From Escherichia coli (GTDB taxonomy: Bacteria > Pseudomonadota > Gammaproteobacteria > Enterobacterales > Enterobacteriaceae), in assembly GCF_051903065.1 (NCBI RefSeq), contig NZ_CP178438.1: a stretch of DNA of 64,000 bases. One strand, given 5' to 3'. The translations under genes were made by a program, and so were the position numbers. Under the pieces are notes generated by a model. The model ran no database searches, had not been told where the DNA came from, and saw nothing but the letters and a program-made list of their open reading frames with translations. Of this stretch, positions 8,815 through 63,820 are shown piece after piece; position 1 is the stretch's first letter, and each line of letters opens with the position of its first letter.

Positions 8815-8834
8815 CCGCCATATCGGGAGGCTGC

Positions 8835-10666: not shown

Positions 10667-10821
10667 GGCGTTCCGTCACCCCTCAAATTTAAGATGACGC
10701 GACAATAACCACGATTAACACCCAATGCAGCAGGCAGTTTTTATCTTTGGACAGCGAATTCAGAAGTATTTTTAGCGGACTGCAACTTTTACATTTCAGC
10801 GGAAGCTGACTCGCAAATTCC

Positions 10822-10858
10822 CCTTGAAAATACTCCGGCAGCGTTAGCCACCGGAGAG
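10822..10858 (-). terminator. probable terminator downstream of hisP
   Basis: ctccgg...ccggag stem with T-run on the minus strand. Confidence 0.4.
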
Positions 10859-10862
10859 GCAA

Positions 10863-11636
10863 TTATTTCAGCGAACCTTTAAGGAACTGTTGCAGACGAG
10901 GGCTTTGCGGGTTGCCAAATAACTGCTCCGGCGCGCCTTCTTCCTCTATTTTCCCCTGATGGAGGAAAATGACGTGAGTAGAAACATGACGAGCAAAGCC
11001 CATTTCGTGAGTCACTACCACCATGGTTTTCCCCTCTTCTGCCAGTTGCTGCATAATGCGCAACACTTCGCCTACCAGTTCAGGATCGAGCGCCGAGGTA
11101 GGTTCATCAAACAGTAAAACTTCCGGTTCCATCGCCAGCGCCCGCGCGATAGAAACACGCTGTTGCTGACCGCCGGAAAGATGCACCGGATATTTCCCCT
11201 GTGCACGTTCGTCTATCCCGACTTTTGCCAGATACTTCACCGCCCGCTCGCGCGCTTCCTGCTTGCTCAGGCCCAACACCTGAATCGGCGCTTCCATGAC
11301 GTTTTCCAGCACCGTCATATGGCTCCAGAGATTGAAGTGCTGGAATACCATCGTCAGGCGTGTGCGCAGTAAGCGCAGTTGATTTTTATCGGCGACTTTG
11401 AGTTGACCGTCTTTGTCGCGCACCAGATTGATCGTCTGGCCATTGACCACGATCGCCCCTTCACTCGGTTTTTCGAGGAAGTTAATGCAGCGCAGAAAGG
11501 TACTTTTCCCCGATCCCGACGATCCGATGATGCTTATTACATCTCCGGCATTCGCTTGCAGTGACACCCCTTTCAGCACTTCGTGTTCGCCATAGCGTTT
11601 GTGCAAATCGATAACGTTTAATTTATTCTCGGACAT
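10863..11636 (-). CDS. hisP: histidine/basic amino acid ABC transporter ATP-binding protein
   Basis: 257 aa; Walker [13 protein letters not shown] signature LSGGQQQR. Confidence 0.95.
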
Positions 11637-11643
11637 CGTATTC

Positions 11644-12360
11644 TCAGTGCGTTGAAGAAGGTTTCACATGCTGCAACCAGCGTTTTTCCGCTCTGCGAAA
11701 GAGGCTGATCAGGACATAAGAGATGATTAAATAGAGCACCGCGGCAATGCCGAAGGCGGTAAAAGGTTGATACGTGGCGGCGTTAATATCGCGGGCTATT
11801 TTCAGCAGATCCGGCACCGTGGCAGTAAATGCCAACGCAGTAGAGTGCAGCATCAGGATCACTTCGTTGCTGTATGCCGGTAACGCAATACGCAGCGCAG
11901 AAGGCAAAATAATGCAGCGATACATTTTAAAAGTCGAGAAGCCATAGGCTCTGGCGGCTTCAATTTCCCCATGCGGAACCGAACGGATTGCCCCAGCAAA
12001 AATCTCGGTAGTGTAAGCGCAGGTGTTAAGCGTCAGCGCCAGCACGGTACAGTTCAGGCCACTGCGGAAAAAGGCGTTAAGAAACTCGGTCCCTTTAACA
12101 ATCTCCAGCGTATACATGCCGGAATAGAACACCAGCAACTGAACATACAGCGGCGTACCGCGAAAAATATAGGTAAATAACCAGATTGGAAACTGGATGT
12201 ATTTATTACTGGAGACGCGACCAATCGCCAGAAACAGCGCCATGACTCCGCCTATCACTACCGACAAAATCAGCAGCCACAGGGTGATCGCCACGCCAGT
12301 AAAGCGATAACCGTCAGTCCACAGCAGCGGTTTCCAGTATTCATGTAAGATTTCGATCAC
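11644..12360 (-). CDS. hisM: histidine ABC transporter permease
   Basis: 238 aa polytopic permease; position in hisJQMP. Confidence 0.9.
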
Positions 12361-13043
12361 AGGTCAGCCCTCTTCACACCCACGGAGTAGCGGCGCTCAA
12401 GGAACAGCAGCACACCATTGGAAACGGTGGTGAAAACCAGGTAAATCACGCCACAGACGATAGCGAAATAGAACGGTTCCCAGGTACTTTTGCCTGCCAG
12501 TTGGGTGGCTTTGACCACATCTTCCAGGCCAAGTAACGAAACCAGGGCGGTAGATTTGAGGATCACCTGCCAGTTGTTGCCAATGCCTGGCAGGGCGTAA
12601 CGCATCATCGCCGGAAACATGATCCGCCGAAACACTTGCCCACGAGTAAAACCGAACGCCGTCGCCGCCTCTATATGCCCTTTCGGCACTGCCATAAACG
12701 CGCCACGGAACGTTTCGGTGAAGTAAGCACCGTAGATAAAACCGAGAGTGATAATACCAGCGACCATCGGATCGATATCAATCTGCCCGACGCCCATCGC
12801 CTCCGTCACCGTGTTTAGTGCAATCTGCAAACCGTAGAAAATCAGCAGCATCAACACCAAGTCCGGCACGCCACGAATCAGCGTGGTGTAGCCTTCGAAA
12901 ATCAGCCCCGAAAGCCGATTTTGCGAGAGCTTACCGCCAGCGCCAATTAAACCGATGATTACAGCGAGCACTACAGAGCTGATAGCCAGCTCCAGCGTGA
13001 CGAGCGCACCCTGTAAAATAACACCTGAAAACCCATACAACAT
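12357..13043 (-). CDS. hisQ: histidine ABC transporter permease
   Basis: 228 aa; 4-bp overlap with hisM. Confidence 0.9.
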   Translation of the reverse strand: MLYGFSGVILQGALVTLELAISSVVLAVIIGLIGAGGKLSQNRLSGLIFEGYTTLIRGVPDLVLMLLIFYGLQIALNTVTEAMGVGQIDIDPMVAGIITLGFIYGAYFTETFRGAFMAVPKGHIEAATAFGFTRGQVFRRIMFPAMMRYALPGIGNNWQVILKSTALVSLLGLEDVVKATQLAGKSTWEPFYFAIVCGVIYLVFTTVSNGVLLFLERRYSVGVKRADL

Positions 13044-13132
13044 GCAGCCTGTCCTGTCGTGTGTGGTGAATTACCGCCTCTTGTCTCCCTCCAGTTACCC
13101 GAAGGGAGCGGGCTTTCTTTCACCGATGGCGA

Positions 13133-13915
13133 TTAGCCACCATAAACATCAAAATCGAAGTACTTTTTCGCTAATTTCTCGTAAGTACCGTCAGCGCGCA
13201 TTTCGGCAAAGGCTTTGTTCAGTGCCTCGCGCAGTTCGTTATCTTCTTTACGCAGGCCCATGCCGGTCCCTACGCCAAACAGTTTTTCATCTTTAACAGA
13301 CGGGCCACCGAATTTGTAATCTTTACCGACAGGTTGTTTAAGGAAACCTTCACTGGCAGCGACCTCATCCTGGAACGCGGCATCAATACGTCCGGCAGTC
13401 AGGTCAGAATAAATGTTGTCCTGCCCCTGATACGAGACGATTTCAATGCCTTTTGGTGCCCAGTGTTCATTACCGAACGTCTCCTGGGTGGTGCCCTGCA
13501 ATACGCCTACCCGTTTGCCTTTCAGCGACTCGACTGTCGGCTGAATGTTGGAATTTTTCGCCACCACCAGACGAGAATCGGCAGCGTACAGTTTGTCGGT
13601 GAAGGCAATTTCTTGCTGACGTTTTTCCGTAATGGAAAGCGATGACATGATGGCGTCAATCTTCTTCGCTTTTAAGGACGGGATTAATGCATCCAGCGGA
13701 TTTTCGACAAACGTACATTGCGTATTGATGCGTTTGCATAATTCCTTTGCCAGATCGATATCGAAGCCAACCAGTTCGCCTTGTGAATTTTTTGATTCAA
13801 ATGGCGCATAGGTCGGGTCGGTACCGATGCGGATGTTTTGCGGAATCGCAGCAAATGCCGCAGTTGCGCTGGAGAAGGCCAGAACCAGAGAGAGCGATAG
13901 CACCAGTTTTTTCAT
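13133..13915 (-). CDS. hisJ: histidine-binding periplasmic protein
   Basis: 260 aa with signal peptide; paralogue of downstream argT. Confidence 0.95.
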
Positions 13916-14135
13916 AATGTCCTCAACTGACAGTCTTTTTATAGGGAATATTTACAGGTTTGTTACACTTATCGTGCCATAAAATTGACCATCAAGGCAA
14001 AATATCCCGCCCCGTTAGACGTATTATTTTTCATTAAAAATGCTTAAGTATGCATTTCAATGCACCACGATAGTGCAACAAACCTGGCGTGCACCATGAT
14101 GATCATTCCATCAGGTACAGCTTCCCTGCGACGTA

Positions 14136-14918
14136 TCAGTCACCGTAGACATTAAAGTCAAAATACTTTTTCGCCATCTTGTCGTAAGTGCCGTCCTGAC
14201 GCAGCTCGCCAAGCGCCTTATTGAAGGCAGCCGTCAGTTCAGCATCATCTTTACGTAGCCCTACACCGGTGCCATCACCGAAGTATTTTTTGTCTTTTAC
14301 TGATGAGCCAGCAAAGGCGAAGTCTTTACCAGCAGGTTGCTTGAGGAATCCTTCGCTGGCAGCAACTTCATCCTGCAGTGCAGCATCCAGACGTCCTGCA
14401 GCCAGATCGGAATAGACCAAATCCTGGTTGGCATAGGCCACCACATCCACACCTTTGCTACGCCAGGTCTCGTTAGCGTAAGCTTCCTGGGTTGATCCCT
14501 GCAGCACACCAACATGTTTACCTTTCAGTGAATCCAGCGTTGGCTGAATCGGTGAACCTTTGGCGGCAATCAGACGAGAATCTGCGGCGTACAGCTTGTC
14601 GGAGAAGGCAATCTCCTGCTGACGTTTATCGGTAATGGAAAGCGACGAAATAATGGCGTCGATTTTTTTCGCTTTCAGTGAGGGGATCAGCGCGTCAAAG
14701 TCACTGGCAACCCAGGTACATTTCACCTGCATCCGTTTGCACATCTCGTTACCGAGATCGATGTCAAAGCCAACAAAATCACCTTTAGCATCTTTCGATG
14801 AGAACGGTGCGTAGGTGGTATCGGTTCCGATACGTACCGTCTCCGGTAGCGCCGCATAGCTGGAAGCCGCTGCGGAGAGACCGACTAACAAAGACAGAGC
14901 GAGAATCGACTTCTTCAT
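14136..14918 (-). CDS. argT: lysine/arginine/ornithine-binding periplasmic protein
   Basis: 260 aa; [39 protein letters not shown]. Confidence 0.95.
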
Positions 14919-14985
14919 ACATAACCCTCAAGTGAAAATGGCTTTTTTATGTTGTGTATTGTGTTGTGTGTTTGCAGGCTCTTTC

Positions 14986-15002
14986 ATGCAGGTCTTATGC
15001 CA
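14986..15002 (-). promoter_or_regulatory. candidate sigma-54 (-24/-12) promoter for argT
   Basis: Minus strand reads TGGCATAAGACCTGCAT (consensus TGGCAC-N5-TTGCA), about 70 bp upstream of the argT start. Confidence 0.45.
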
Positions 15003-15183
15003 TCTTGACGACAACAGTAACATTCAACGTTAAATGTGTTAATAAGACGTTGCATTATTGTCCTGAAGTTGAAGATAGCAGGTATAGCGGTTGAATCGCA
15101 GCGTTTCGATTGAATGGCAGAAACAAAATGTCGAGGATTTGATCGCGGTTGCAAAATTGCCCTGAAACAGGGCAACAGCGGAG

Positions 15184-15753
15184 TTATGCGCCCTGCCAGC
15201 GGGCAAAGAGATCTTCAGGAAGGGTTATCGCAAACTGGTCAAGAACACGATTAACCGTCTGATTTATCACATCATCAAGGGATTGCGGGCGATGATAAAA
15301 CGCCGGAACGGGAGGCATAATCACCGCACCGATTTCTGCTGCCTGAGTCATTAAACGCAGATGACCTAAGTGCAATGGTGTTTCACGCACGCAAAGCACC
15401 AACGGGCGGCGCTCTTTCAGCACCACATCTGCCGCACGGGTCAGTAAGCCATCAGTATAGCTATGGACAATGCCGGACAGAGTTTTGATTGAACAGGGTA
15501 AAATCACCATCCCCAACGTCTGGAAAGAACCGGAAGAGATGCTGGCGGCAATATCGCGCGCATCATGCGTGACATCAGCTAATGCCTGCACTTCGCGCAG
15601 GGAAAAATCCGTTTCGAGGGATAAGGTCTGGCGCGCCGCCTGGCTCATCACCAGATGCGTTTCGATATCTGTGACATCGCGCAGAACCTGTAATAAGCGC
15701 ACGCCATAAATCGCGCCGCTGGCACCGCTGATGCCCACAATAAGTCGTTTCAT
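15184..15753 (-). CDS. ubiX: flavin prenyltransferase
   Basis: 189 aa; MKRLIVGISGASGAIYGVRLLQVL. Confidence 0.9.
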   Translation of the reverse strand: MKRLIVGISGASGAIYGVRLLQVLRDVTDIETHLVMSQAARQTLSLETDFSLREVQALADVTHDARDIAASISSGSFQTLGMVILPCSIKTLSGIVHSYTDGLLTRAADVVLKERRPLVLCVRETPLHLGHLRLMTQAAEIGAVIMPPVPAFYHRPQSLDDVINQTVNRVLDQFAITLPEDLFARWQGA

Positions 15754-15847
15754 AAATAGTTGCCCTGTCAGACTTGCAGGCAGACTTTGCAGGATTTCGG
15801 CGGGAGTTGCAAGTCAGGGTGCCAGACCGGCACCCTGAGCGAAGGCA

Positions 15848-17365
15848 TCATCCTTCGTTATGCATTTCGAGATTTTCCACTTCGTTCTGACGTTGCACTG
15901 CTTTGGCGTCGTCATTACGTAAAGTATCGAGGAAATCGAGGTAGCCCTGATCAACATCTTTGGTGACGTAGACGCCGTTGAACACCGAGCATTCAAACTG
16001 CTGGATATCCGGGTTTTCAGCGCGAACGGCTTCGATCAGATCGTTCAGATCCTGGAAAATCAACCCGTCAGCACCGATGATCTGGCGAATTTCATCTACT
16101 TCGCGACCGTGAGCGATCAGTTCCGTGGCGCTCGGCATATCAATACCATAAACGTTCGGGAAGCGAATTTCCGGTGCCGCAGAAGCGAGGTACACTTTCT
16201 TCGCTCCGGCTTCGCGTGCCATCTCGATAATCTGCTCAGAAGTGGTGCCACGGACGATAGAGTCGTCGACCAGCAGGACGTTTTTATCGCGGAACTCGGC
16301 GCGGTTGGCGTTCAGTTTACGGCGCACGGACTTACGACGCAGCTGCTGGCCCGGCATGATGAAGGTGCGGCCAACATAGCGGTTTTTAACGAAGCCCTGG
16401 CGGTACGGTTTGCCCAGAATACGAGCAATTTCCAGCGCGATATCACACGAGGTTTCCGGAATAGGGATCACCACGTCGATATCCAGATCTTCCCATTCGC
16501 GGGCAATTTTCTCACCCAGTTTCGTGCCCATATTCACACGTGCGCTGTAAACGGAAATTTTGTCGATGAACGAGTCCGGGCGGGCAAAGTATACATACTC
16601 AAACAGGCACGGATTGCTGACCGGATTGTCAGCACATTGACGGGTAAACAACTGCCCTTCTTCAGTGATGTAAATCGCTTCGCCCGGCGCGACATCACGC
16701 AGGAAATCAAAGCCCAGCGTATCGAGCGCTACGCTTTCGGAAGCGACCATATATTCTGTGCGGTTCTCGTCTATATCACGTTTTCCCAGAACCAGCGGAC
16801 GAATACCGTTTGGATCGCGGAAAGCAACCATACCGTGGCCGATAATCATCGCCACACAGGCATACGCGCCGCGGATTAAGCGGTTTGTAGCAGCGATGGC
16901 GGCGAAAATGTTGTCGGCTTCCAGCGGGTAGTGGCGGAAGTTGTCCAGCTCGCTGGCGAAGATATTAAGCAGAATTTCCGAGTCGGAAGTGGTGTTGATG
17001 TGGCGGCGTTTTTCTTCAAACAGTTTTTTACGCAACTCGTGAGCGTTGGTCAGATTGCCGTTGTGGGCAAGCGTAATGCCATACGGGGAGTTAACGTAAA
17101 ACGGCTGCGCTTCAGAGGCGCTGGAGCTGCCAGCCGTGGGGTAACGCACATGACCAATGCCCATATTGCCCTGCAAACGCTGCATATGGCGAGCTTCAAA
17201 TACATCGCTCACCAGCCCGTTCGCTTTACGCAAACGGAAGCAGTTATTGGCATCTATGGTGATGATGCCGGCGGCATCCTGACCGCGATGCTGAAGCACC
17301 GTTAAGGCATCATAAATCGACTGGTTAACCGGCATAACACCGGCGATACCGACAATACCGCACAT
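15848..17365 (-). CDS. purF: amidophosphoribosyltransferase
   Basis: 505 aa; N-terminal MCGIVGI with catalytic Cys. Confidence 0.97.
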
Positions 17366-17401
17366 ACGTCTTTTTCCTCGTTAAGCCACATCTCAGAGCA
17401 C

Positions 17402-17890
17402 TTACGCTCTGGGCAAGAAACTTGACGAGCTTTGCAGATAATCAAAAAACCATCTGATGATAAAACTGAACTGCGGGATCAGCTGGGATTTGCTCCAGTC
17501 TTCGCTTTTCGACACCCCGGTAAAGGAGTCGAGAAAGAAGAGAATGGCAGCAACAATCAACACTCCGCGCAACGCACCGAAACAGACGCCCAGCACCCGA
17601 TCGGTGCCTGACAACCCCGTTTTCTCCACCAGCTGGCCTATCACGAAGTTCACGATAGCACCAACGATCAGGGTAGCGATAAACAGTACCGCGATGGCAA
17701 TCCCATTTCGAACCAGTTCGTCTTCAAAGCCCGTAAACCAGACTGACAGGTAAGTGTAGTAATGACTGGCAACAAAGAAAGCACAACCCCATGTCACCAG
17801 CGATAACGCTTCACGAACAAAGCCGCGGATCAGGCTAACCAGAGAGGAAAAAGCAATCACCACGATTATGGCGTAATCAATCCAGACCAT
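17402..17890 (-). CDS. cvpA: colicin V production membrane protein
   Basis: 162 aa membrane protein immediately upstream of purF. Confidence 0.9.
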   Translation of the reverse strand: MVWIDYAIIVVIAFSSLVSLIRGFVREALSLVTWGCAFFVASHYYTYLSVWFTGFEDELVRNGIAIAVLFIATLIVGAIVNFVIGQLVEKTGLSGTDRVLGVCFGALRGVLIVAAILFFLDSFTGVSKSEDWSKSQLIPQFSFIIRWFFDYLQSSSSFLPRA

Positions 17891-17947
17891 ATGTGTCCCA
17901 CGATTTTACGCCCTGTCATCCTGTTCGGGGCGCATTCTAACAGAAAA

Positions 17948-17963
17948 AGAAAACGTTTGCGTA
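17948..17963 (-). promoter_or_regulatory. PurR operator (pur box) of the cvpA-purF-ubiX operon
   Basis: Minus strand reads ACGCAAACGTTTTCT, matching the pur-box palindrome, about 60 bp upstream of cvpA. Confidence 0.65.
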
Positions 17964-18057
17964 GGGATTTCCTTCCCGCGCATCAATAAAAATGGCGCTG
18001 AAAAAATATTCAACGCCATCGACTTTTTATGCCTTTGCGGCATCGTGCAATGCGTGT

Positions 18058-18420
<363 letters not shown>

Positions 18421-54004: not shown

Positions 54005-54079
54005 GTCCTCTTAGTTAAATGGATATAACGAGCCCCTCCTAAGGGCTAATTGCAGGTTCGATTCCTGCAGGGGACACCA
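54005..54079 (+). tRNA. argW: tRNA-Arg (anticodon CCU)
   Basis: 75-nt cloverleaf GTCCTCTTAGTTAAATGGATATAACGAGCCCCTCCTAAGGGCTAATTGCAGGTTCGATTCCTGCAGGGGACACCA. Confidence 0.9.
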
Positions 54080-54254
54080 TGCACACCTCTCCTGAAATCT
54101 ACCATACCCCACAAAAAGCCTTTATAATCAGCACATACCCTTACTTATGTTACTCAAATAGTCGCCTTAATTCTCCTCAGGGGAACGTAAATCAAGTCAC
54201 ATTTGGGGGCCTATTTAGGGGCACATCTTGGTCAATCTATTGCGAGGCCCCCAG

Positions 54255-54888
54255 ATGCCACTGACAGCTCGACAAGTTGAAACAGCCAAACCCAAAGATA
54301 AAATTTATAAGATTGCCGATGGTGGTGGGCTCTACCTTCAGGTCAATCCTAACGGCTCAAAGTACTGGCGAATGAAGTACCACTATGCGGGGAAGGAAAA
54401 GAAACTATCATTTGGCACCTATCCAACTATTACATTGGCTGAAGCTCGCAAACGTCGGGATGAAGCCAAGAAAATACATGCCGATGGTAAAGATCCCGGT
54501 GAAGTCAAGAAAGCTGAAAATCTTGAGAAAAACCTTTCCGAAGGAAGAACTTTTGCCGCAATCGCCACCGAGTGGTACAACGCAAAAGTTTCAGGCTGGT
54601 CTGCCAGCTACGCTGATTATGTCGACAGAGCATTCAAAAATAATGTGTTTCCCTACATTGGAAACAGACCCATTAGTGAAATCGAACCTCTTGAACTTCT
54701 CGCAGTTCTTCAGCGTATCGAAAGCCGAGGAGCCTGCGAGCTAGCTAATAAAGTTCGCCAACGATGTGGTGAAGTGTTTCGGTATGCCATTGTTACAGGT
54801 CGGGCACGATACAATCCAGCTTCTGATCTGGTTATAGCAATGAAAAGCTATAAGCGAACACATTACCCTTTCCTGCTTCCTCCTGAAC
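54255..54888 (+). pseudogene. P4-type tyrosine integrase (IntS-like), N-terminal fragment, interrupted by IS903-type insertion
   Basis: MPLTARQVETAKPKDKIYKIADGGGLYLQVNPNGSKYWRMKYHYAGKEKKLSFGTYP...; reading frame resumes after the insertion. Confidence 0.85.
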
Positions 54889-55945
54889 GGCTTTGTTGAA
54901 TAAATCAGATTTCGGGTAAGTCTCCCCCGTAGCGGGTTGTGTTTTCAGGCAATACGCACGCTTTCAGGCATACCTGCTTTCGTCATTTTGTTCAGCGCTC
55001 GTACCAGGGCCATAGCCTCTGCAACCTGACCATCGTAGTCACGCAGTGTCAGTGAACCCCCGAACAGCTGTTTTACCCGGTACATCGCCGTTTCCGCTAT
55101 CGAGCGACGGTTGTAATCTGTTGTCCATTTCCACCGCGCATTACTCCCGGTCATTCGCTGATTAGCCACTGCACGGTTACGGTCTGCATATTCACCGGGC
55201 CAGTAACCCGCACCTTTTCGGGGAGGGATAAGCGCGCTGATTTTCTTACGCCGCAGTTCATCGTGACATAGCCGGGTATCGTAAGCGCCATCGGCGGCGG
55301 CTGACCTGATTTTCCGGTGGGTTTGCCGGATTAACCCGGGGAAGGCCTCTGAGTCCGTAACGTTGTTCAGCGACAGGTCAGCGCAGATGATTTCATGTGT
55401 TTTACTGTCAACGGCGAGATGCAGCTTACGCCAGATACGGCGGCGTTCCTGGCCATGCTTTTTGACTTTCCACTCGCCTTCACCGAAGACCTTCAGCCCG
55501 GTGGAATCAATTACCAGGTGTGCGATTTCACCCCGGGTGGGCGTTTTGAAACTGACATTAACCGACTTTGCCCGCCTGCTGACACAGCTGTAATCCGGGC
55601 AGCGTAGCGGAACGTTCATCAGAGAAAAAATGGAATCAATAAAGCCCTGCGCAGCGCGCAGGGTCAGCCTGAATACGCGTTTAATGACCAGCACAGTCGT
55701 GATGGCAAGGTCAGAATAGCGCTGAGGTCTGCCTCGTGAAGAAGGTGTTGCTGACTCATACCAGGCCTGAATAGCTTCATCATCCAGCCAGAAAGTTATG
55801 GAGCCACGGTTGATGAGGGCTTTATTGTAGGTGGGCCAGTTGGTGATTTTGAACTTTTGCTTTGCCACGGAACGGTCTGCGTTGTCGGGAAGATACGTGA
55901 TCTGATCCTTCAACTCAGCAAAAGTTCGATTTATTCAACAAAGCC
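54889..55945 (-). mobile_element. IS903-type insertion sequence (IS5 family), 1057 bp
   Basis: 18-bp terminal inverted repeats GGCTTTGTTGAATAAATC at both ends; flanked by a perfect 9-bp direct repeat CTCCTGAAC (54880-54888 and 55946-55954). Confidence 0.9.
54945..55913 (-). CDS. IS903-type transposase (DDE)
   Basis: 322 aa; MKDQITYLPDNADRSVAKQKFKITNWPTYNKALINRGSITFWLDD... Confidence 0.9.
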   Translation of the reverse strand: MKDQITYLPDNADRSVAKQKFKITNWPTYNKALINRGSITFWLDDEAIQAWYESATPSSRGRPQRYSDLAITTVLVIKRVFRLTLRAAQGFIDSIFSLMNVPLRCPDYSCVSRRAKSVNVSFKTPTRGEIAHLVIDSTGLKVFGEGEWKVKKHGQERRRIWRKLHLAVDSKTHEIICADLSLNNVTDSEAFPGLIRQTHRKIRSAAADGAYDTRLCHDELRRKKISALIPPRKGAGYWPGEYADRNRAVANQRMTGSNARWKWTTDYNRRSIAETAMYRVKQLFGGSLTLRDYDGQVAEAMALVRALNKMTKAGMPESVRIA

Positions 55946-55954
55946 CTCCTGAAC

Positions 55955-56511
55955 TACCAGAGTTTTTATACAAACTCGAAAACTACACCGGCAGTATTGT
56001 AACCCGTGAAGCTACAAAATTGTTGATGCTCACAGGGCTGAGAACAGTAGAATTACGTATGGGGGAATGGTGTGAGATCGATTTTACCCAAAAGATATGG
56101 GAAGTTCCTCCGACCCGGATGAAAATGAGGAAGGAGCATATCGTCCCTCTGTCAGATCAGGCAATCCAGTCTCTGCAAATCCTCAAAGAACTGACTGGAA
56201 GATACAGATACATCTTTGCCGGAAGAAATGATGTTAACAGGCCTATCAGCGATGCAAGCGTCAATATGGTTTTGAAGAAGATTGGCTATGACAAAAAAGC
56301 TACCGGGCATGGATTTCGTCATACAATGAGTACTGTTCTACACGAGCAAGGATTCAATAGTGCATGGATTGAAATGCAACTTGCACATACGGACAAAAAC
56401 AGCATTCGTGGTACATACAACCATGCTCGTTACCTTGAAGGAAGACGAGAAATGATGCAATGGTACGCTGACTACCTTGATGCTCTTCGAAAAGAGTCAC
56501 CAGCTATATAA
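55955..56511 (+). pseudogene. P4-type tyrosine integrase, C-terminal catalytic fragment
   Basis: Frame continues from the N-terminal fragment once the IS and one repeat copy are removed; catalytic-domain motifs (HGFRHT, terminal Y). Confidence 0.85.
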
Positions 56512-56805: not shown

Positions 56806-57309
56806 TTATTGATAGTGTTTTATGTTCAGATAATGCCCGATGACTTTGTCATGCAGCTCCACCGATTTTGAGAACGACAGCGACTTCCGTCCCAGCCGTG
56901 CCAGGTGCTGCCTCAGATTCAGGTTATGCCGCTCAATTCGCTGCGTATATCGCTTGCTGATTACGTGCAGCTTTCCCTTCAGGCGGGATTCATACAGCGG
57001 CCAGCCATCCGTCATCCATATCACCACGTCAAAGGGTGACAGCAGGCTCATAAGACGCCCCAGCGTCGCCATAGTGCGTTCACCGAATACGTGCGCAACA
57101 ACCGTCTTCCGGAGCCTGTCATACGCGTAAAACAGCCAGCGCTGGCGCGATTTAGCCCCGACATAGCCCCACTGTTCGTCCATTTCCGCGCAGACGATGA
57201 CGTCACTGCCCGGCTGTATGCGCGAGGTTACCGACTGCGGCCTGAGTTTTTTAAGTGACGTAAAATCGTGTTGAGGCCAACGCCCATAATGCGGGCTGTT
57301 GCCCGGCAT
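56806..57309 (-). CDS. insB: IS1 InsB
   Basis: 167-aa ORF in IS1. Confidence 0.9.
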
Positions 57310-57503
57310 CCAACGCCATTCATGGCCATATCAATGATTTTCTGGTGCGTACCGGGTTGAGAAGCGGTGTAAGTGAACTGCAGTTGCCATGTTTTACGGC
57401 AGTGAGAGCAGAGATAGCGCTGATGTCCGGCGGTGCTTTTGCCGTTACGCACCACCCCGTCAGTAGCTGAACAGGAGGGACAGCTGATAGAAACAGAAGC
57501 CAC
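57228..57503 (-). CDS. insA: IS1 InsA
   Basis: 91-aa [46 protein letters not shown]. Confidence 0.9.
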
Positions 57504-57535
57504 TGGAGCACCTCAAAAACACCATCATACACTAA

Positions 57536-57937
<402 letters not shown>

Positions 57938-58033
57938 CATGCATCACAACAGCTCCTCATAGGCACTCAGTGGTCGATGTTCCACCTGACTGATCTGCTG
58001 CCAGAGCGGGGCGTGAGGTTCCGGTACTATCTG

Positions 58034-58375
58034 CTAGCCAGACGACACTGAGCAGAGGCGATGTGAGGCCACCAGTTTCTCATTACTGTAGATCCGCAAC
58101 TCATCGTTCAGCGATATTCGTATCGAGACTGGCTGACCACACAGCATTTCGGGAACGCTGTACTGATTACCTCCAACTTCGTTATAGCGGGTCCCAGGAC
58201 ACATGGCGGATGTCGAAGTAACTGGTATCGAAGTCTGTATCCGGTAACGGCTGCAGATGTTCCTGCTCCAGCGCGAAGCGCTGTTCCGGCGTTTCTTTGA
58301 ACTGACGAAGCTCCCATTTGTCAGCCACATCGGCTAGCGCCAGCTAACCTATGCGGTACTGGCCTTGGTGCTAAC
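58034..58375 (-). pseudogene. IS21-family IstA transposase fragment (frameshifted)
   Basis: Minus-strand frames give ...EQEHLQPLPDTDFDTSYFDIRHVSWDPL and GNQYSVPEMLCGQPVSIRISLNDELRIYSNEKLVASHRL; opposite orientation to the istB fragment. Confidence 0.6.
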
Positions 58376-58616
58376 CCGCGTTAAAGCTACCACGTTGATC
58401 AGAGCCTCTCTCCCGGAAAGTCATACTGTCTTACATATTAATCACTCAAAATAGAGTAAATAAAATCATACAACTAGAGAGTGATTATAATTGTTATTGA
58501 ACACTGGTTATCCCATTTTTGTTATATTGATCACAAAACCCTTCTTTTTATGATGATCTAAAAATAAATATTAAATATTGTGGTCAGGCCGCTAGACCAC
58601 AATAAGAGGAAATATC

Positions 58617-59906
58617 ATGAAAAGAAAAACCATGGGGTGGATTATCGTTTTTCTTCTGTTTATAGTTTACATGCTGAACTATATGGATCGTTCTGCATTA
58701 TCGATTACGGCCCCACTTATCGAAAAAGAGTTAGGCTTTAATGCTGCTGAAATGGGGATGATTTTCAGCGCATTTTTCGTTGGTTATGCTTTATTTAACT
58801 TCATTGGCGGTTGGGCCAGTGACAAAGTTGGACCCAAAACAGTATTTTTGGTTGCTGCACTGTTGTGGTCTGTTTTTTGTGGTATGACCGGTCTGGTCAC
58901 CGGATTATGGACAATGCTTGCCGTACGTGTTTTATTTGGTATGGCAGAGGGCCCGGTTAGTGCAGCAGGAAATAAAATTATTAATAACTGGATCTCGCGT
59001 AAAGAGTCGGCAACAGCTATCGGTATTTTTAGTGCTGGTTCACCACTTGGTGGCGCTATTTCTGGTCCGGTCGTTGGCTTGCTGGCAATATCACTTGGCT
59101 GGCGTCCGGCGTTTGGGATCATATTTATATTTGGCCTAGTTTGGGTATTACTGTGGTACTTCTTTGTCAGTGATAAACCGTCAAAAAGTAAACGTCTGGC
59201 AGCGGAAGAACGTGTCGATTTCGAAAACCATGACGATATTATTCTAGCCGAAGATGGTAAAGGTACACCTTCGCTTGGTTATTACATGAAGCAGCCGATG
59301 GTATGGGCGACCACGCTGGCATTTTTTAGCTATAACTATATTCTATTTTTCTTTCTTACTTGGTTTCCAAGCTATTTGAATCATTCATTACACATTGATA
59401 TTAAAGAAATTAGTATTGCAACTGTTATCCCGTGGTTTATTGGGGCAATTGGCATGGTGTTAGGTGGCGTCTGCTCTGACTTTATTTATCGTATTACGGG
59501 AAATGCCTTACTTTCTCGCCGTTTAATTCTCGGCAGTTGCCTTGCGGGGGCCGCGGTTTGTGTCGCTGTTTCCGGAACTGTTACCTCTATTGGTAGTGCG
59601 ATTACGCTGATGTCTGTTTCCTTATTCCTGCTTTATCTAACTGGACCTATTTATTGGGCTGTTATTCAGGATGTAGTGCATAAAGATAAAGTAGGTAGCG
59701 TAGGCGGTGCGATGCACGGTCTGGCAAATATTTCCGGCATTATTGGTCCATTGGTAACCGGTTTTATTGTCCAGTTCAGTGGTAAATATGATTACGCATT
59801 CTATCTTGCAGGTGCCATAGCAATCATTTCAAGTCTGCTGGTATTCATTTTTGTTAAAAATAAAGGATTGAAATTCAATGAAAGTCAAAGCTGTGTACAT
59901 CAATAA
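58617..59906 (+). CDS. MFS transporter, anion:cation symporter (ACS) type (sugar-acid/hexuronate-like)
   Basis: 429 aa, 12 predicted TM; motif GGWASDKVGPK; absent from this position in K-12. Confidence 0.85.
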   Translation: MKRKTMGWIIVFLLFIVYMLNYMDRSALSITAPLIEKELGFNAAEMGMIFSAFFVGYALFNFIGGWASDKVGPKTVFLVAALLWSVFCGMTGLVTGLWTMLAVRVLFGMAEGPVSAAGNKIINNWISRKESATAIGIFSAGSPLGGAISGPVVGLLAISLGWRPAFGIIFIFGLVWVLLWYFFVSDKPSKSKRLAAEERVDFENHDDIILAEDGKGTPSLGYYMKQPMVWATTLAFFSYNYILFFFLTWFPSYLNHSLHIDIKEISIATVIPWFIGAIGMVLGGVCSDFIYRITGNALLSRRLILGSCLAGAAVCVAVSGTVTSIGSAITLMSVSLFLLYLTGPIYWAVIQDVVHKDKVGSVGGAMHGLANISGIIGPLVTGFIVQFSGKYDYAFYLAGAIAIISSLLVFIFVKNKGLKFNESQSCVHQ

Positions 59907-60903
59907 ACCTGGTGAAATTGCTACCCGTCTGGTCGATTATCCAGTAAGAAAAGATAATGAAGTTTTAATTAAAGTGGATGCAGCGGGAATTTGTGGTTCT
60001 GACATCGGTGCATTTCGTGGTACTAACCCACTGGTAACTTATCCGAGAATTATTGGACATGAAGTCACCGGGATTGTTCTGGAAACCGGTGAGGGGGTAC
60101 CACAAAATATCAAACAGGGCGACCGGGTTATTGTAGATCCCTATGTTTATTGCGGTCACTGTTATCCATGTTCTGTAGGTAGAACTAATTGCTGCGAGAA
60201 CTTAAAAGTCATCGGCGTACATATTGATGGCGCTATGCAAGAAGTGGTTTCGCATCCGGCTCACTTAATTCACAAAATTCCTGACAATGTACCGTCAGAG
60301 ATGGCGCCACTGGCTGAACCCTTAACTATTGCCCTACACGCATTACATCGAGCGCAATTGAAAGCAGGTGAACATGTCGTCATTATTGGTGCAGGCGCTA
60401 TTGGACTTATGGCGGCCCTGAGTTCGTTGAACTATAAAGCAACTCCCATTCTGGTTGATATTGTCGATGAACGGTTGCAATACGCGAAATCGCTCGGCGT
60501 ACCTTATGTAGTAAACTCCGCAAAAGCTAATGTTATTGAGGCAGTGAAAGATATTACACAAGGGACGATGGCTCAGGTTGTGGTGGAAGCCTCTGGTGCA
60601 AATAGCGCAATCAGAAGTACCCTGGATCTGGCCTCATTTGCAGGGCGTATAGCCTATACTGGTTGGCCAAAGCAGGAAACATCGTTACCAACTAATCTAA
60701 TTACCTTTAAAGAACTAGATTTACGTGGTTCCCGTACCAGTGCCGGTGAATTTGAAGAAGCCCTGCAAATGTTATCAACGCTGAATATTAATCCGGCTGA
60801 TATCGTGAGCAAAGTCGTGACAATAGATGAAGTTCCTGAGGCTGTAAAAGAGTTAGATCAATTTCCGGAACGCTATCTGAAAATTAACGTGAAATTCATT
60901 TAA
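59878..60903 (+). CDS. Zn-dependent medium-chain dehydrogenase (L-galactonate 5-dehydrogenase LgoD-like)
   Basis: 341 aa; catalytic Zn GHEVTG, structural Zn CGHCYPCSVGRTNCC, NAD motif GAGAIGL; overlaps the MFS gene by 29 nt. Confidence 0.85.
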   Translation: MKVKAVYINKPGEIATRLVDYPVRKDNEVLIKVDAAGICGSDIGAFRGTNPLVTYPRIIGHEVTGIVLETGEGVPQNIKQGDRVIVDPYVYCGHCYPCSVGRTNCCENLKVIGVHIDGAMQEVVSHPAHLIHKIPDNVPSEMAPLAEPLTIALHALHRAQLKAGEHVVIIGAGAIGLMAALSSLNYKATPILVDIVDERLQYAKSLGVPYVVNSAKANVIEAVKDITQGTMAQVVVEASGANSAIRSTLDLASFAGRIAYTGWPKQETSLPTNLITFKELDLRGSRTSAGEFEEALQMLSTLNINPADIVSKVVTIDEVPEAVKELDQFPERYLKINVKFI

Positions 60904-60930
60904 TTATAATTAACAAAAATAAAAAGTCTG

Positions 60931-60959
60931 ACGCGTAGTGTATTCACTACGCGTTTTTT
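60931..60959 (+). terminator. rho-independent terminator of the MFS-dehydrogenase operon
   Basis: acgcgtagtg-tatt-cactacgcgt stem followed by ttttt. Confidence 0.7.
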
Positions 60960-60961
60960 GT

Positions 60962-61403
60962 GTGCGCCGTGACTGGCGCTGTTCTTCAACTGTGGTGGCT
61001 GAAGAACGACTAAGAGGTGAAAGTTCTCCAAACACCCGGTGAGGGGAAATGTTAGCGGAAGGCAAGGATGTTCATCGCGAGGTGAAATCTGAAGGAAGCC
61101 GGATGCAAAATGCTGGCCTGACGAACAGGAAGCGGCTAAGGCGGCACAAATCACCAAAGCCCAATACTCACACGGAACGCGGTGACGTACAGCCGACAGG
61201 CATAAGCAGGAAAGTCGTGCGAATTACCCCGGGAGATCTGCCGCTCTGCCAGTGTGCTACCGACGCCGTAGTAGCGCTGCAAAACCGGCAGCATGAAGGG
61301 CCGAACATAATTAACCGTGATTAGGACATCCGAACCCGATGATGATTAATGAAGCATAAACGCAGGCAACTGCGGCCAGCGGCAGAAGAGACGGACGGCA
61401 TCC
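60962..61403 (+). other. candidate 5' fragment of a group II intron RNA (domain I region), truncated
   Basis: Begins GTGCGCC immediately after a terminator U-tract; GC-rich non-coding stretch with GNRA-like loops; no domain V or RT ORF; abuts the IS3-family element. Confidence 0.4.
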
Positions 61404-61446
61404 TGAGGTGTACTGGCAATAGCGGACACTACCATTTGTTCTTTTT

Positions 61447-62265
61447 TTAAGCAGCCATCTGATGATATTTTTCCCTGAAGGCTGCCGGGGAGATATTCCC
61501 CAGACGAGAGTGACGACGCTGACGATTGTAGAAAATCTCAATGTATTCCCGTATTACTGAGATGGCCTCATCCCGGCTATTAAAACGATAGTGGCTCAGG
61601 CTCTCATTTTTCAGCGTTCCCCAGAAGCTTTCCATCGGAGCGTTGTCGTAACAGTTACCTTTACGCGACATTGATGTTTTCAGACCAAACTGCTCCTGGA
61701 TGACCCGGTAATCGTATGCGCAGTACTGTGAACCTCGATCGGAGTGGTGGATTAGCCCAGCAGGTGGGCGCTGGCTCCTGAGCGCCATAAACATGGCTTT
61801 ACCTGTCAGCTCTTTTGTCATGCGCTCTCCCATGGCGTAGCCGACAATTTCGCACGTATAAACATCTTTGATGCCAGCGAGGTACAACCATCCCTCCTGT
61901 GTGGCAACATACGTCAGGTCCGCCACCCAGACCTGATTTGGTACTGTAGGAGCGAACGTCTGGTTCAGCAGATTTGGCGCAACTGGCAGATTGTGGCTCG
62001 AGTTCGTAGTCGCTCTGAACTTGCGTTTCTGCTTACAGCGTAGCCTTAGCTCCTTACGAAGACGTGCCAGTCGGTCACGACCAACGATGATGCCATTCTC
62101 TGCCAGCTCCGTCTGGAGCCGCCGGGTTCCATATGTTTCGCGAGTGCTGATATGTGCCACCTTAATCTCCAGTTTTAGCCGCTCATCACTTTGTTTTCTG
62201 TCTGAGGGGTCATGCTGTACCCAGTTGTAATAACCGCTCCTGGATACACCAAATACCTGACACAT
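61447..62265 (-). CDS. IS3-family transposase OrfB (DDE integrase-like domain)
   Basis: 272 aa; ...VWVADLTYV..., [19 protein letters not shown] motifs. Confidence 0.88.
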
Positions 62266-62342
62266 CGCTTCAATGGGAAATTGTTGTCGCCATTGTTCGA
62301 TTAACGCGTATTTTTCAGCGACTCCTGTGCAAAATACGCTGT

Positions 62343-63563
62343 TGTAGATTCAATCTGTCAATGCAACACCCCTTTCAATTATCTCTTTCGGTGTTTTGAA
62401 CTTCAGTGTCTTTCTCGGTCTGTTGTTTAGCTGAGCAGCAACCAGATCTAGTTCATGTTGAGTATATTGGGCAAGACATGTCTTTTTAGGAAAGTACTGC
62501 CGAATTAGCCCATTTGTGTTCTCATTTGTTCCCCGCTGCCAAGGACTCTGAGGATCGCAGAAGTAAACTTTAACGCCGGTGCTGACAGTAAATTCTAGAT
62601 GTCTGGCCAGTTCCATTCCTCTGTCCCATGTCAGTGATTTTCTGAGTTCTGACGGTAAACTCAGGAATTTGTCGGTAAGAGCCTGATTTACTGAGACAGA
62701 ATCTTTGCCCCTGAGTCTAAGGATGATCGTATAACGTGATTTTCGGTCTACAAGTGTGGCTATATGAGAGTTTTTTGTACCTAAGACTAAATCGCCCTCC
62801 CAATGCCCCAGAGAGCGTCTGTTATCGATATTTCGGGAACGTTCGTGAATTGGTGTTCCGTTCACTATGTTAATCGTACCTCTTTCGCCTTTGCGGGTAT
62901 GACGCCTGCCATGGCGAAGGCTATGCGACCGTCGCAGATGCTGTATATTCAGGTGGTGTAGCGCTTCACGGCTACGAAAGTACAGCGTTTTATAAATTGT
63001 CTCAGGTGATATTCGCAGCGTTTTTTGACGTGGTTTTGTTCGCCTTAACCATCCTGATATTTGCTCTGGAGACCATTTCATCTCCAGCTTTTCCAGAACA
63101 AGCTTTCGCAATGGTAAATTTTGATCCAGTAAGCACGGTTTTGGCCTTTTCGCCATTCTGTTGGCTCGGTTATTAGCATCAACAGCTTTGTAATAGCGTC
63201 TGCCCCGATTACGCTGAACTTCACGTGAGATCGTCGAAGGACTGCGATTCAGCGCAGTAGCTATCGCACGAATGCTCATTTTGGCTGACAAACCAGCTCG
63301 TATCTCCTCGCGCTCAGACAGTGTCAGGTGAGCTACAGCCCGCTTACGCTCATGGGGTTTTATGCCGCCAGTATCCCTTAACATAGTGAAGATCGTTCCG
63401 GGTTTTGAACCCAGGATATTCGCTATTTCACTGAAGCCTGTTCCGTTCTTCCATAGTTCAAAAACAGAGGCTTTTTCCTCTGCTGTAAATGTTCGTCTCA
63501 TTCAAAAAACCTCTGCAACCCCATGTTTTCACATAACTGTTGCGTTGACCAATTGAATCTACA
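62343..63563 (-). mobile_element. IS30, 1221 bp
   Basis: Ends TGTAGATTCAATCTGTCAATGCAACACCCC and (reverse complement) TGTAGATTCAATTGGTCAACGCAACAG; 383-aa transposase inside. Confidence 0.92.
62350..63501 (-). CDS. insI: IS30 transposase
   Basis: 383 aa; MRRTFTAEEKASVFELWKNGTGFSEIANILGSKPGTIFTMLRD... Confidence 0.92.
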   Translation of the reverse strand: MRRTFTAEEKASVFELWKNGTGFSEIANILGSKPGTIFTMLRDTGGIKPHERKRAVAHLTLSEREEIRAGLSAKMSIRAIATALNRSPSTISREVQRNRGRRYYKAVDANNRANRMAKRPKPCLLDQNLPLRKLVLEKLEMKWSPEQISGWLRRTKPRQKTLRISPETIYKTLYFRSREALHHLNIQHLRRSHSLRHGRRHTRKGERGTINIVNGTPIHERSRNIDNRRSLGHWEGDLVLGTKNSHIATLVDRKSRYTIILRLRGKDSVSVNQALTDKFLSLPSELRKSLTWDRGMELARHLEFTVSTGVKVYFCDPQSPWQRGTNENTNGLIRQYFPKKTCLAQYTQHELDLVAAQLNNRPRKTLKFKTPKEIIERGVALTD

Positions 63564-63820
63564 ACGGCTTTTTTTAATATGTCCCGTTCGTCGGTAACCC
63601 GCTTCAGCTCTTTCTGGAGACGGCGGATCTCGGCCTGAGCATCTGACTGTTCTTTATTAGTGGAAGAATCCGGACCGTACTTCTTTATCCAGGAGTAAAG
63701 GCTGTGGGTGGTGATATTGAGACGTGTTGCAACGCTGGCAACAGAATAACCGCGATCAACAACCTGTTTGACTGCTTCAATTTTAAACTCTTCGGGATAA
63801 CGCTTACCGCTCATGGGCAC
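63564..63820 (-). CDS. IS3-family OrfA (HTH), 3' end interrupted by IS30
   Basis: MSGKRYPEEFKIEAVKQVVDRGYSVASVATRLNITTHSLYSWIKKYG...ERDILKKA, then the A-run slippery site and the IS30 end. Confidence 0.8.

Follow-up and report, generated by a model that had tools for sequence, protein, structure and literature searches.

A transporter–dehydrogenase gene pair in an Escherichia coli argW island as part of a probable L-gulonate feeder module

Bacterial genomic islands may carry gene pairs that look orphaned until their relatives are compared. We analyzed a window of 64,000 nucleotides from Escherichia coli (the window being the whole stretch of DNA studied), in which a transporter gene and a zinc-dependent dehydrogenase gene overlap within the island at argW. 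We propose, with a probability of about 0.7, that this pair represents the transporter and the first enzyme of a three-gene L-gulonate "feeder" module, the third member of which is a FadR-type GntR repressor. In the proposed route, an ACS-type MFS transporter would import L-gulonate by proton symport, and the zinc-dehydrogenase would oxidize C5 with NAD+ to give D-fructuronate. UxuB would then reduce D-fructuronate to D-mannonate, UxuA would dehydrate D-mannonate to 2-keto-3-deoxygluconate, and KdgK and Eda would deliver pyruvate and glyceraldehyde-3-phosphate. Since these last four are core E. coli enzymes, the short form of the module would need no further enzymes of its own. The substrate and the direction of flux, as well as expression in the window strain, are proposed here from sequence comparison.

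The features of the locus are as follows, in window coordinates.

54005-54079: tRNA-Arg(CCT), argW.
57545-58434: IS21 debris, the left boundary of the module; an istB C-terminal fragment (plus strand), then a frameshifted istA fragment (minus strand).
57545-57871, plus strand: the IstB C-terminal fragment (195 bits).
58435-58616, plus strand: native upstream control region, which travels with the pair; homology to a 93% E. coli variant (L002) begins at 58435.
58520-58535, plus strand: candidate CRP site TGTTATATTGATCACA, predicted, 9 of 10 consensus positions.
58527-58554, plus strand: promoter-like TTGATC-16-TATGAT, predicted by a promoter scan.
58559-58564, plus strand: TAAAAA, predicted, beside the promoter-like element.
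58577-58603, plus strand: perfect palindrome ATTGTGGTC-N9-GACCACAAT, directly 5' of the ribosome-binding site; candidate operator.
58617-59906, plus strand: MFS transporter gene (429 aa; list of open reading frames).
59878-60903, plus strand: zinc-dehydrogenase gene (341 aa; list of open reading frames).
60930-60961, plus strand: intrinsic terminator with an 11-bp G+C-rich stem (60930-60955), a 4-nt loop, and T6.
60962-61403, plus strand: group II intron 5' fragment (Rfam RF02001, 89 bits, E = 8e-18).
61402-64000, minus strand: IS3-family element, which truncates the intron and reaches, or nearly reaches, the window end.
62350-63501: transposase of an IS30 inside the IS3-family element.

The anatomy of the pair, its orthology, synteny, and conservation, and the breakpoints around it are direct observations. 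By the list of open reading frames, the two genes share 59878-59906 (29 nt), and AGGA stands 9 nt 5' of the dehydrogenase ATG. This overlap would couple translation of the two genes, and the transcript would end at the terminator, which has a folding energy of -19.2 kcal/mol (z = -4.2). An earlier note on this DNA had described a co-oriented pair, overlapping by 29 nt and closed by a clean terminator; the coordinates and the strong stem with its T-run bear out that description. Alignment was searched for inactivating lesions in either gene and revealed none: both are free of stop codons and frameshifts and are full length relative to their orthologues. With dN/dS of 0.03-0.09 against orthologues (approximately 0.03 for the MFS gene), both genes have evidently evolved under strong purifying selection. 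The pair is native: Salmonella and Citrobacter have the same 29-nt overlap, and a junction of unrelated operons made by insertion sequences is ruled out by the overlap and gene order conserved in three genera.

The 341-aa protein contains the Pfam domains ADH_N and ADH_zinc_N. In an alignment of its clade, the catalytic zinc ligands C39/H61/E62, the structural zinc cysteines C92/C95/C98/C106, the GAGAIG motif of the NAD(+) Rossmann fold (G171-G176), and D194 do not vary. The window protein shares 63% identity and 81% similarity, with 0 gaps over 339 aa, with GulD of Haemophilus influenzae (HiGulD). We identified the reference protein (P0062) as HiGulD because each of the four peptides that the published HI0053 primers encode is found in it, and 8 of the 9 published HI0050-HI0054 primers match its contig without mismatch. 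The 5' 26 nt of the primer used to clone HiGulD have no exact match in the genome contig collection, and H. influenzae is absent among the 80 loci listed by a genome scan. HiGulD oxidizes L-gulonate at C5 to D-fructuronate with a kcat/KM of ~1e4 M-1 s-1, and a mutant without it can no longer grow on L-gulonate (Calhoun et al. 2018, PMC5788505). The window protein belongs to the GulD clade (EC 1.1.1.380 type; HiGulD is Q57517), being closer to HiGulD than to enzymes of other specificity, and is most likely an NAD+-dependent L-gulonate 5-dehydrogenase producing D-fructuronate. At this identity, transfer of the substrate from HiGulD is plausible without being assured, and the GulD paper cautions on identities below ~60% (PMC5788505).

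The orthologous operons add gene context to this assignment. The same MFS-dehydrogenase pair, again with the 29-nt overlap, is present in Citrobacter youngae, C. braakii, two more Citrobacter species, and S. enterica; identities to the window's dehydrogenase are 82-88%, and to its transporter 93-95%. Behind the pair in Citrobacter and S. enterica come UxuA, a reductase of the UxuB type, and a GntR/FCD (FadR-type) gene in convergent orientation, and the Salmonella operon's UxuA and UxuB are 92% and 84% identical to those of K-12. We also counted neighbors within 8 kb of 32 species-representative loci whose dehydrogenase is at least 59% identical: UxuA occurs in 22, a fructuronate-reductase-type gene in 20, an MFS or TRAP acid transporter in 24, and a GntR-type regulator in 22. 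This company of GulD-type genes (reductase, UxuA, acid transporter) is seen in orthologues from the 4 Citrobacter species, S. enterica, and the Pasteurellaceae. Since the orthologous operons carry uxuA and uxuB, oxidation of L-gulonate to D-fructuronate is indicated, which offers a candidate where the earlier note had entered the substrate as unknown. Within the window, only the transporter adjoins the dehydrogenase; uxuAB is supplied by the core genome, and 5404 of the 5426 complete E. coli genomes have it.

The dehydrogenase had at first been described as LgoD-like. The likeness holds at the level of the superfamily, but it is distant, with only 36% identity to K-12 LgoD and 28% between the transporter and LgoT, against the much closer match to the characterized GulD. 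The corresponding lead, a second LgoT/LgoD-type system that would take up L-galactonate and oxidize it to D-tagaturonate for UxaB and UxaA, is quite unlikely. Such a system would share the enzyme superfamily and the transporter family of the window pair; K-12 LgoD/LgoT/LgoR form a comparable three-gene set, and D-tagaturonate is also within reach of core enzymes. The top NCBIfam match of the dehydrogenase is PRK10083 (NF007489), which we take to be an LgoD-type model, yet the score of 244 lies far under the cut-off of 376. The orthologous operons, moreover, have uxuA and uxuB and not uxaA and uxaB, and the regulator of the module has no real similarity to LgoR beyond the helix-turn-helix region. 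Judged as an LgoD orthologue, the protein thus has a model score below the cut-off, low identity, and no LgoT/LgoR partners. Related enzymes, LgoD among them, take both L-galactonate and L-gulonate, according to the title of a cited paper, which counts against too firm a transfer of the substrate from HiGulD.

Annotation of medium-chain dehydrogenases is promiscuous, and other substrates were weighed on this account. NCBIfam models for Tdh, IolM, and IdnD match the protein with E-values of 1e-44 to 1e-61, and its PDB matches, the best of which is RspB 4ILK (2.4e-60, 208 bits), include threonine, sorbitol, and xylitol dehydrogenases. It is nonetheless highly improbable that the enzyme oxidizes another sugar acid or a polyol, as an IdnD-like L-idonate 5-dehydrogenase, a sorbitol/xylitol dehydrogenase, or a threonine dehydrogenase would. 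The curated cut-offs are far from reached (IdnD 151 versus 469, Tdh 207 versus 458), the carrier is of the organic-anion (ACS/DgoT) type and not of a polyol type, and the orthologues are accompanied by UxuA/UxuB, the orthologous loci being without IdnO, GntK, or polyol kinase genes. The IdnD, Tdh, and polyol-dehydrogenase identities were set aside on scores, identities, and gene context.

L-gulonate, as the proposed substrate, is also in keeping with the transporter. Pfam assigns the 429-aa protein to MFS_1 (5e-62); its best NCBIfam family is the ACS subfamily TIGR00893, matched over the full length at 329 bits, below the cut-off of 395. The best solved structure is DgoT 6E9N (4e-39, 138 bits), and D24/R25/E111 of the transporter align with DgoT D46/R47/E133, which we take to be the coupling residues of that carrier. 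By family and by these residues, the protein appears to be an ACS-family MFS organic-anion:H+ symporter of the DgoT type, and most likely it imports L-gulonate. The best family and the retained Asp-Arg/Glu set thus support the earlier call of an ACS-type MFS protein. The broader suggestion of a "sugar-acid or polyol" uptake and oxidation unit survives in its first half; a polyol is not consistent with an organic-anion-type carrier, nor with orthologues that come without a polyol kinase.

Upstream of the pair, the final ~50 nt before the MFS ATG do not differ between E. coli, Salmonella, and Citrobacter, and transcription probably starts ~50 nt 5' of this ATG. The stretch 58520-58535 is a candidate CRP site by its match to the CRP consensus; the right half of it, TCACA, recurs in most of the orthologous upstream regions. 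The palindrome occurs once in the window, where 0 copies are expected by chance, and once per locus in 11 enterobacterial loci, always just 5' of the MFS ATG. It is unchanged in three genera while the flanking sequence diverges, and its core is TGGTC/GACCA. It is the candidate operator of the cognate FadR-type GntR protein, which would probably repress the module through it. The 9-nt spacer is atypical, exceeding that of classical FadR-family operators; as RNA the element folds at -14.9 kcal/mol (z = -3.9), and it could alternatively be a hairpin in the 5' untranslated region.

The regulator itself is a 223-aa protein with GntR and FCD domains, and it adjoins the pair in all intact forms examined. 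The intact short form, in which the pair is followed by a convergent GntR gene, is found in S. diarizonae (L013) and, flanked by IS1, as a unit on E. coli plasmids and chromosomes. The terminator is kept in the 93% E. coli variant, with the stop codon of GntR ~20 nt beyond it; in the intact short form, the terminator is bidirectional and also serves the convergent regulator gene. In sister genomes with the island arrangement, the regulator is intact and distant from the pair: the segment comprising GntR and a partial GGDEF gene is inverted, at a distance of 6.4 kb in L001 and of 10.2 kb in APEC E18005. In sister genomes, a cognate regulator of the FadR-type GntR class thus exists, displaced by 6-10 kb, which would put it beyond the window end; since it has moved this far, it would act in trans. 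The counts of the two parts run side by side: the regulator occurs in 209 E. coli genomes and the module in 204, and the records number 160 versus 155 at identities of at least 99% and 50 versus 50 at 90-95%, with 30 versus 30 plasmid places.

The breakpoints suggest how this separation took place. Homology with the 93% variant ends at 60961, exactly at the terminator, and the intron fragment opens with GTGTGCG straight after the terminator T-run. Strain M11 has a related full-length intron with ltrA, likewise just past a terminator. For the island lineage, we read this as insertion of a group II intron right after the terminator, evidently the event that first parted the pair from its regulator; later IS3, IS4, IS21, IS66, and IS30 events would then have moved the regulator gene to its present distance. 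In L001, 26 nt separate the displaced GntR gene from the end of IS4; they were considered as the 3' end of the intron but do not resemble that of the M11 intron. On the other side, RefSeq annotation of the identical sequence in L001 and L092 agrees with IS21 debris, and the island further contains a P4-type integrase split by IS5, plus an IS1. Both flanks thus consist of mobile-element debris, as the earlier note had read them: an IS21 fragment on the left, and the intron fragment with IS3/IS30 on the right. The left flank of the window (argW, the integrase interrupted by IS5, IS1, and the istB fragment) recurs in none of the complete genomes of the collection; the best matches begin at 57559.

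With the regulator located in sister genomes, the statement that no regulator, dehydratase, kinase, or aldolase lies nearby holds inside the window downstream of argW but misleads, as core enzymes would finish the pathway and the sister genomes have the regulator farther out; looking past the window was a step the earlier note had itself advised. Its suggestion of a remnant of a larger catabolic island proves only half right: the E. coli unit is a three-gene short form that is intact elsewhere.

The pair is present in 204 genomes, ~4% of complete E. coli, where RefSeq labels read only "MFS transporter" and "zinc-binding alcohol dehydrogenase family protein." In approximately 13 of 30 sampled island-type copies (~40%), the MFS gene is cut by IS1 or IS5 or partly deleted, which suggests weak present-day selection in this lineage. 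Could the pair then be a decaying relic, with open reading frames still open in a module that no longer works, separated from its regulator in an IS graveyard and heading for loss? The broken MFS copies speak for such decay, as does the degraded island with its split integrase and its IS1, IS21, IS3, IS30, IS4, and IS66 debris; the island-type copies hardly differ among themselves and therefore give no independent evidence of recent selection. We nevertheless consider decay unlikely, given that both reading frames are intact, as are the palindrome, the terminator, and the upstream region starting at 58435, that the regulator is intact in sister genomes and able to act in trans, and that loss of a repressor would de-repress the module, not silence it. 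Decay concerns present activity and is compatible with the assigned biochemical function.

An L-gulonate feeder module may also have a history of its own. We tentatively entertain, at somewhat less than even odds, that the three-gene short form is a self-sufficient "adapter cassette" of low-G+C origin, mobile by horizontal transfer, and not a remnant. It would connect L-gulonate, a sugar acid derived from the host, to the core hexuronate pathway of any enterobacterium. In E. coli it would have spread in the argW island and, flanked by IS1, on P1-like phage-plasmids, and Citrobacter and Salmonella would have gained their five-gene operon only later, by capturing a host copy of uxuAB. If such a cassette is functional, L-gulonate from the animal uronate pathway would be a so far unrecognized, strain-variable nutrient niche of E. 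coli. The L-gulonate assignment itself would provide a strain-variable carbon-source trait and add an enterobacterial branch with MFS uptake to the GulD pathway of 2018; we found nothing specific in the literature on an MFS-linked gulonate system in Enterobacteria. The locus illustrates that an "orphan" of two genes need not be metabolically incomplete if the later steps come from the core genome, and it is a clean example of how a terminator-seeking group II intron and later IS traffic may part an operon from its repressor. All of these findings leave current understanding standing: this is most likely an ordinary, annotatable catabolic feeder module that adds to a pathway described in 2018.

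Four known systems place the module in context. RspB of strain CFT073 (PDB 4ILK), the best structure match and the template for the HiGulD model, is much more distant than GulD, and its rspAB context has an enolase-superfamily dehydratase without an MFS gene or UxuA; RspB reportedly takes part in a cryptic L-gulonate route, said to have been described by Wichelecki and colleagues in 2014. DgoT, the D-galactonate:H+ symporter, is of the same ACS/SLC17-type family and has its TM1 Asp-Arg pair and its TM4 Glu in common with the window transporter, but its similarity is low and its partner enzymes are DgoD/K/A. K-12 LgoT/LgoR/LgoD (YjjL/M/N) likewise combine an ACS MFS transporter, a zinc-dehydrogenase for an L-aldonate, and a GntR-type regulator with core hexuronate enzymes downstream; they differ in gene order and orientation, and their product is D-tagaturonate, processed by UxaB/UxaA. 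The fourth is the H. influenzae cluster, which comprises GulD (HI0053), GulPQM, UxuB (HI0048), UxuA (HI0055), and UxuR (HI0054) (Calhoun et al. 2018, PMC5788505). Its dehydrogenase belongs to the same clade, aligned without gaps, and in both systems an acid transporter and a C5 dehydrogenase feed a fructuronate reductase and UxuA under a GntR/FCD-type regulator, although the window module's regulator is only ~31% identical to the Pasteurellaceae UxuR-type protein. Uptake there is by a TRAP system, in contrast to the single ACS-type MFS symporter of the window module; the reductase is of the SDR type in H. influenzae and of the long-chain UxuB type in Citrobacter and Salmonella; and in E. coli the reductase and dehydratase lie outside the module and come from the core uxuAB operon.

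The gene pair stands beyond the standard E. coli argW locus, in which fadJ, fadI, fadL, mlaA and yfdC are followed by tRNA-Arg(CCT). The main features of the region are as follows.

54005-54079: tRNA-Arg(CCT) (argW)
58520-58535: putative CRP site, 9/10 consensus positions matched
58577-58603: candidate operator palindrome, ATTGTGGTC-N9-GACCACAAT, perfect, 27 nt, directly 5' of the ribosome-binding site
58617-59906, + strand: MFS transporter, 429 aa (six-frame ORF list; Pfam MFS_1)
59878-60903, + strand: zinc-dependent dehydrogenase (ADH), 341 aa (six-frame ORF list; Pfam ADH_N and ADH_zinc_N)
60930-60961, + strand: terminator, G+C-rich 11-bp hairpin then T6; -19.2 kcal/mol, z = -4.2
60962-61403: group II intron fragment starting with GTGTGCG, the intron 5' end (Rfam RF02001, 89 bits)

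An earlier note had described a co-oriented, overlapping pair with a terminator and insertion-sequence debris on both flanks. The ORF list, Pfam and folding bear out the pair, its 29-nt overlap and the terminator; AGGA lies 9 nt 5' of the dehydrogenase ATG. The debris is also present: from argW, the order is a P4-type integrase gene, IS1, an IstB fragment, a frameshifted IstA fragment and the gene pair, followed by the intron fragment and an IS3-family element with IS30 inside. The integrase gene (54228-56511) is cut in two by IS5 (transposase 54945-55913); of the 413 residues of the profile, one piece spans 6-215 and the other 243-396, and the island has thereby lost the ability to excise with its own integrase. 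Between fadL and mlaA, an AT-rich ORF of 343 aa (50524-51555; 32-35% G+C) without an NCBIfam match stands where K-12 has yfdF.

The nearest NCBIfam models are the ACS subfamily TIGR00893 for the transporter (329 bits; cut-off 395) and PRK10083 for the dehydrogenase (244 bits; cut-off 376), and neither protein reaches a curated NCBIfam name. The label "LgoD-like" attached to the dehydrogenase has to be given up: its identity to K-12 LgoD is 36%, against 63% to the L-gulonate 5-dehydrogenase of H. influenzae (HiGulD, HI0053; protein match P0062). Orthology with LgoD and LgoT is ruled out by this 36%, by the 28% identity of the transporter to LgoT, and by a regulator that has no relationship to K-12 LgoR beyond the helix-turn-helix. 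The alignment with P0062 is gap-free over 339 residues, with 81% similarity. P0062 was identified as HiGulD by the presence of all four peptides from published primers, and 8 of the 9 published HI0050-HI0054 primers match its contig without mismatch. Relatives of the dehydrogenase nearer than LgoD in the protein search come from Salmonella enterica (~82%) and from Pasteurellaceae, clostridia and Aeromonas (61-67%), some of them carrying the JGI label "L-gulonate 5-dehydrogenase." The clade shows no variation at the zinc ligands, in the GAGAIG motif or at the acidic residue that closes the second Rossmann strand. On sequence and context, the dehydrogenase is assignable to the HiGulD clade. The best solved-structure relative of the transporter is DgoT, with which it shares the TM1 Asp-Arg pair and the TM4 Glu.

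Gene context was scanned in one genome per species. Salmonella has the order MFS, ADH (with the same 29-nt overlap), UxuA, a Mannitol_dh-family reductase and a convergent GntR/FCD regulator; this five-gene cluster recurs in four Citrobacter species (ADH 87-88%, MFS 93-94% identical). S. enterica subsp. diarizonae has a three-gene short form, MFS-ADH-GntR, and Sodalis a more distantly related set of the same genes. In ~17 Pasteurellaceae, the ADH gene has uxuA-uxuR on one side and a TRAP transporter with an SDR reductase on the other. This is the layout of the L-gulonate pathway in H. influenzae, which Calhoun et al. first predicted and later validated (PMC5788505). There, GulD oxidizes L-gulonate at C5 to D-fructuronate with a kcat/KM of ~1e4 M-1 s-1, UxuB converts D-fructuronate to D-mannonate, which UxuA dehydrates, and GulD and GulP knockouts do not grow on L-gulonate (PMC5788505). 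Across 32 loci with an ADH of at least 59% identity, genes within 8 kb encode UxuA (22/32), a fructuronate-reductase-type enzyme (20/32), a GntR-type regulator (22/32), and a TRAP (17/32) or MFS (7/32) transporter.

Only two aldonates, L-gulonate and D-mannonate, yield D-fructuronate on C5 oxidation; since D-mannonate is already taken care of by UxuB, an additional dehydrogenase feeding into UxuB and UxuA is readily understood as an entry point for L-gulonate. In the proposed route, the MFS protein would take up L-gulonate by proton coupling and the zinc-dependent dehydrogenase would oxidize it to D-fructuronate with NAD+; reduction by UxuB, dehydration by UxuA, phosphorylation by KdgK and aldol cleavage by Eda would follow. 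KdgK and Eda are core E. coli enzymes, and the short form would be enough in this species, since 5404 of 5426 genomes have uxuAB.

Of the 5426 complete E. coli genomes, 204 contain the 2.56-kb segment, which falls into two sequence types: an island type with 99% or more identity to the window (155 records) and a second type at ~93% (50 records), to whose records all 30 plasmid places belong. The ~93% type is an IS1-flanked unit consisting of IS1, a truncated EAL gene, MFS, ADH, convergent GntR/FCD with GGDEF and LysE, and IS1; the flanked segment measures 6.6 kb (variant loci L002 and L003, both 10307-18352). The unit is carried in identical form by a P1-like phage-plasmid, with c1 repressor and antirepressor genes close by, and by a chromosome, where it adjoins an integrase at the glyW-cysT-leuZ tRNA cluster. 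Its 223-aa FadR-type GntR gene ends ~20 nt past the terminator it has in common with the dehydrogenase gene. This regulator gene is present in 209 E. coli genomes (160 records at >=99%, 50 at 90-95%, 30 plasmid places), a distribution almost equal to that of the gene pair. On the boldest reading, the short form would be a mobile adapter cassette that enables some E. coli to use L-gulonate, in part via P1-like phage-plasmids; we give this reading about two chances in five.

The window and the ~93% unit are homologous from 58435 to 60961, the final T of the terminator; the intron fragment begins at the next nucleotide and is cut at ~61403 by the IS3-family element. The island-type genome AMSCJX02 keeps the remainder of the ancestral unit, namely the GntR gene (protein 92% identical to that of the ~93% variant) and the 3' end of the GGDEF gene (~170 codons), as an inverted block 6.4 kb away whose homology starts at the exact nucleotide where the first block stops. 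APEC E18005 reproduces the IS3::IS30 layout of the window, with an intact regulator gene 10.2 kb downstream of the dehydrogenase gene. The claim that no regulator is nearby is thus correct for the window itself and fails for related genomes, where the cognate regulator lies just outside. The left flank of the window occurs in no complete genome of the collection, and the regulator position is therefore taken from these relatives.

In E. coli M11, a related full-length intron with ltrA (2960-4900 of that locus) directly follows the terminator hairpin and T-run of a ter-operon gene. Some bacterial group II introns target terminators, a habit that the M11 position fits, and the intron positions in the window and in M11 look like terminator-targeted insertion. 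Sister genomes (L001, which is AMSCJX02, 1-9942; L092, 1-6711) carry a cluster between the island start and the IS21 debris that is absent from the window; it encodes a TerB-N-domain protein, an ATP-binding protein, a DEAD/DEAH helicase and an HsdR-N-domain protein, possibly a defence system. Where it would stand in the window, IS1 (56806-57558) directly adjoins the istB fragment, a junction suggestive of an IS1-mediated deletion.

The palindrome occurs once in the window, against 0 expected by chance, and once per locus in 11/11 enterobacterial loci, unchanged while the non-coding DNA around it diverges. We take its TGGTC/GACCA core to resemble FadR-subfamily operators, the 9-nt spacer being long, and we infer control-element roles for the palindrome and the CRP site. 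Alternatively, the palindrome could act as an RNA hairpin instead of an operator; as RNA it folds at -14.9 kcal/mol (z = -3.9). Upstream, a second inverted pair, GATCAC and GTGATC, ~20 nt apart (58527-58560), is conserved in E. coli, Salmonella and Citrobacter; it may belong to the promoter or the CRP site, or serve as a second operator.

The module had also been suspected of being the remnant of a larger catabolic island, and the five-gene form might be the origin, with uxuAB lost in E. coli. Against this, the G+C content in Salmonella and Citrobacter is 43-49% for the MFS, ADH and GntR genes and 53-56% for the uxuA and uxuB genes between them; the dehydratase and reductase of the Salmonella operon, the only long-form operon compared, match K-12 UxuA and UxuB with protein identities of 92% and 84%; and in rough neighbour-joining trees the long forms group together, with the short forms (E. 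coli, S. diarizonae; Sodalis as outgroup) basal. These observations argue, suggestively only, that the short form is older and uxuAB was captured later, a host copy apparently having entered a foreign low-G+C module (loci L005 11047-13783 and L011 9047-11800).

Evidence on present function is mixed. Between lineages, dN/dS is 0.03-0.09, indicating strong purifying selection; a check for inactivating lesions found both genes of the window intact, and the sole difference from AMSCJX02 is V420F, at a variable tail position. Among 30 island-type copies sampled at even intervals along the ranking, ~13 carry an MFS gene that either is split by IS1 or IS5 or has lost part of its sequence, and present selection in the island lineage therefore looks weak. 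IS1A interrupts this gene in many island-type genomes, sometimes with an adjacent deletion (H46-H51, H63-H69), and in one genome IS5 leaves only 23% of the segment.

The assignment helps annotation and lends itself to a simple growth experiment, but would not surprise a specialist. The gene pair would do the work of the first steps in the L-gulonate pathway of H. influenzae, with an MFS symporter where H. influenzae uses a TRAP system, and with a FadR-type regulator distinct from that of the H. influenzae system. Unlike that pathway, the pair in E. coli relies on the core uxuAB operon and has been disrupted by mobile elements.
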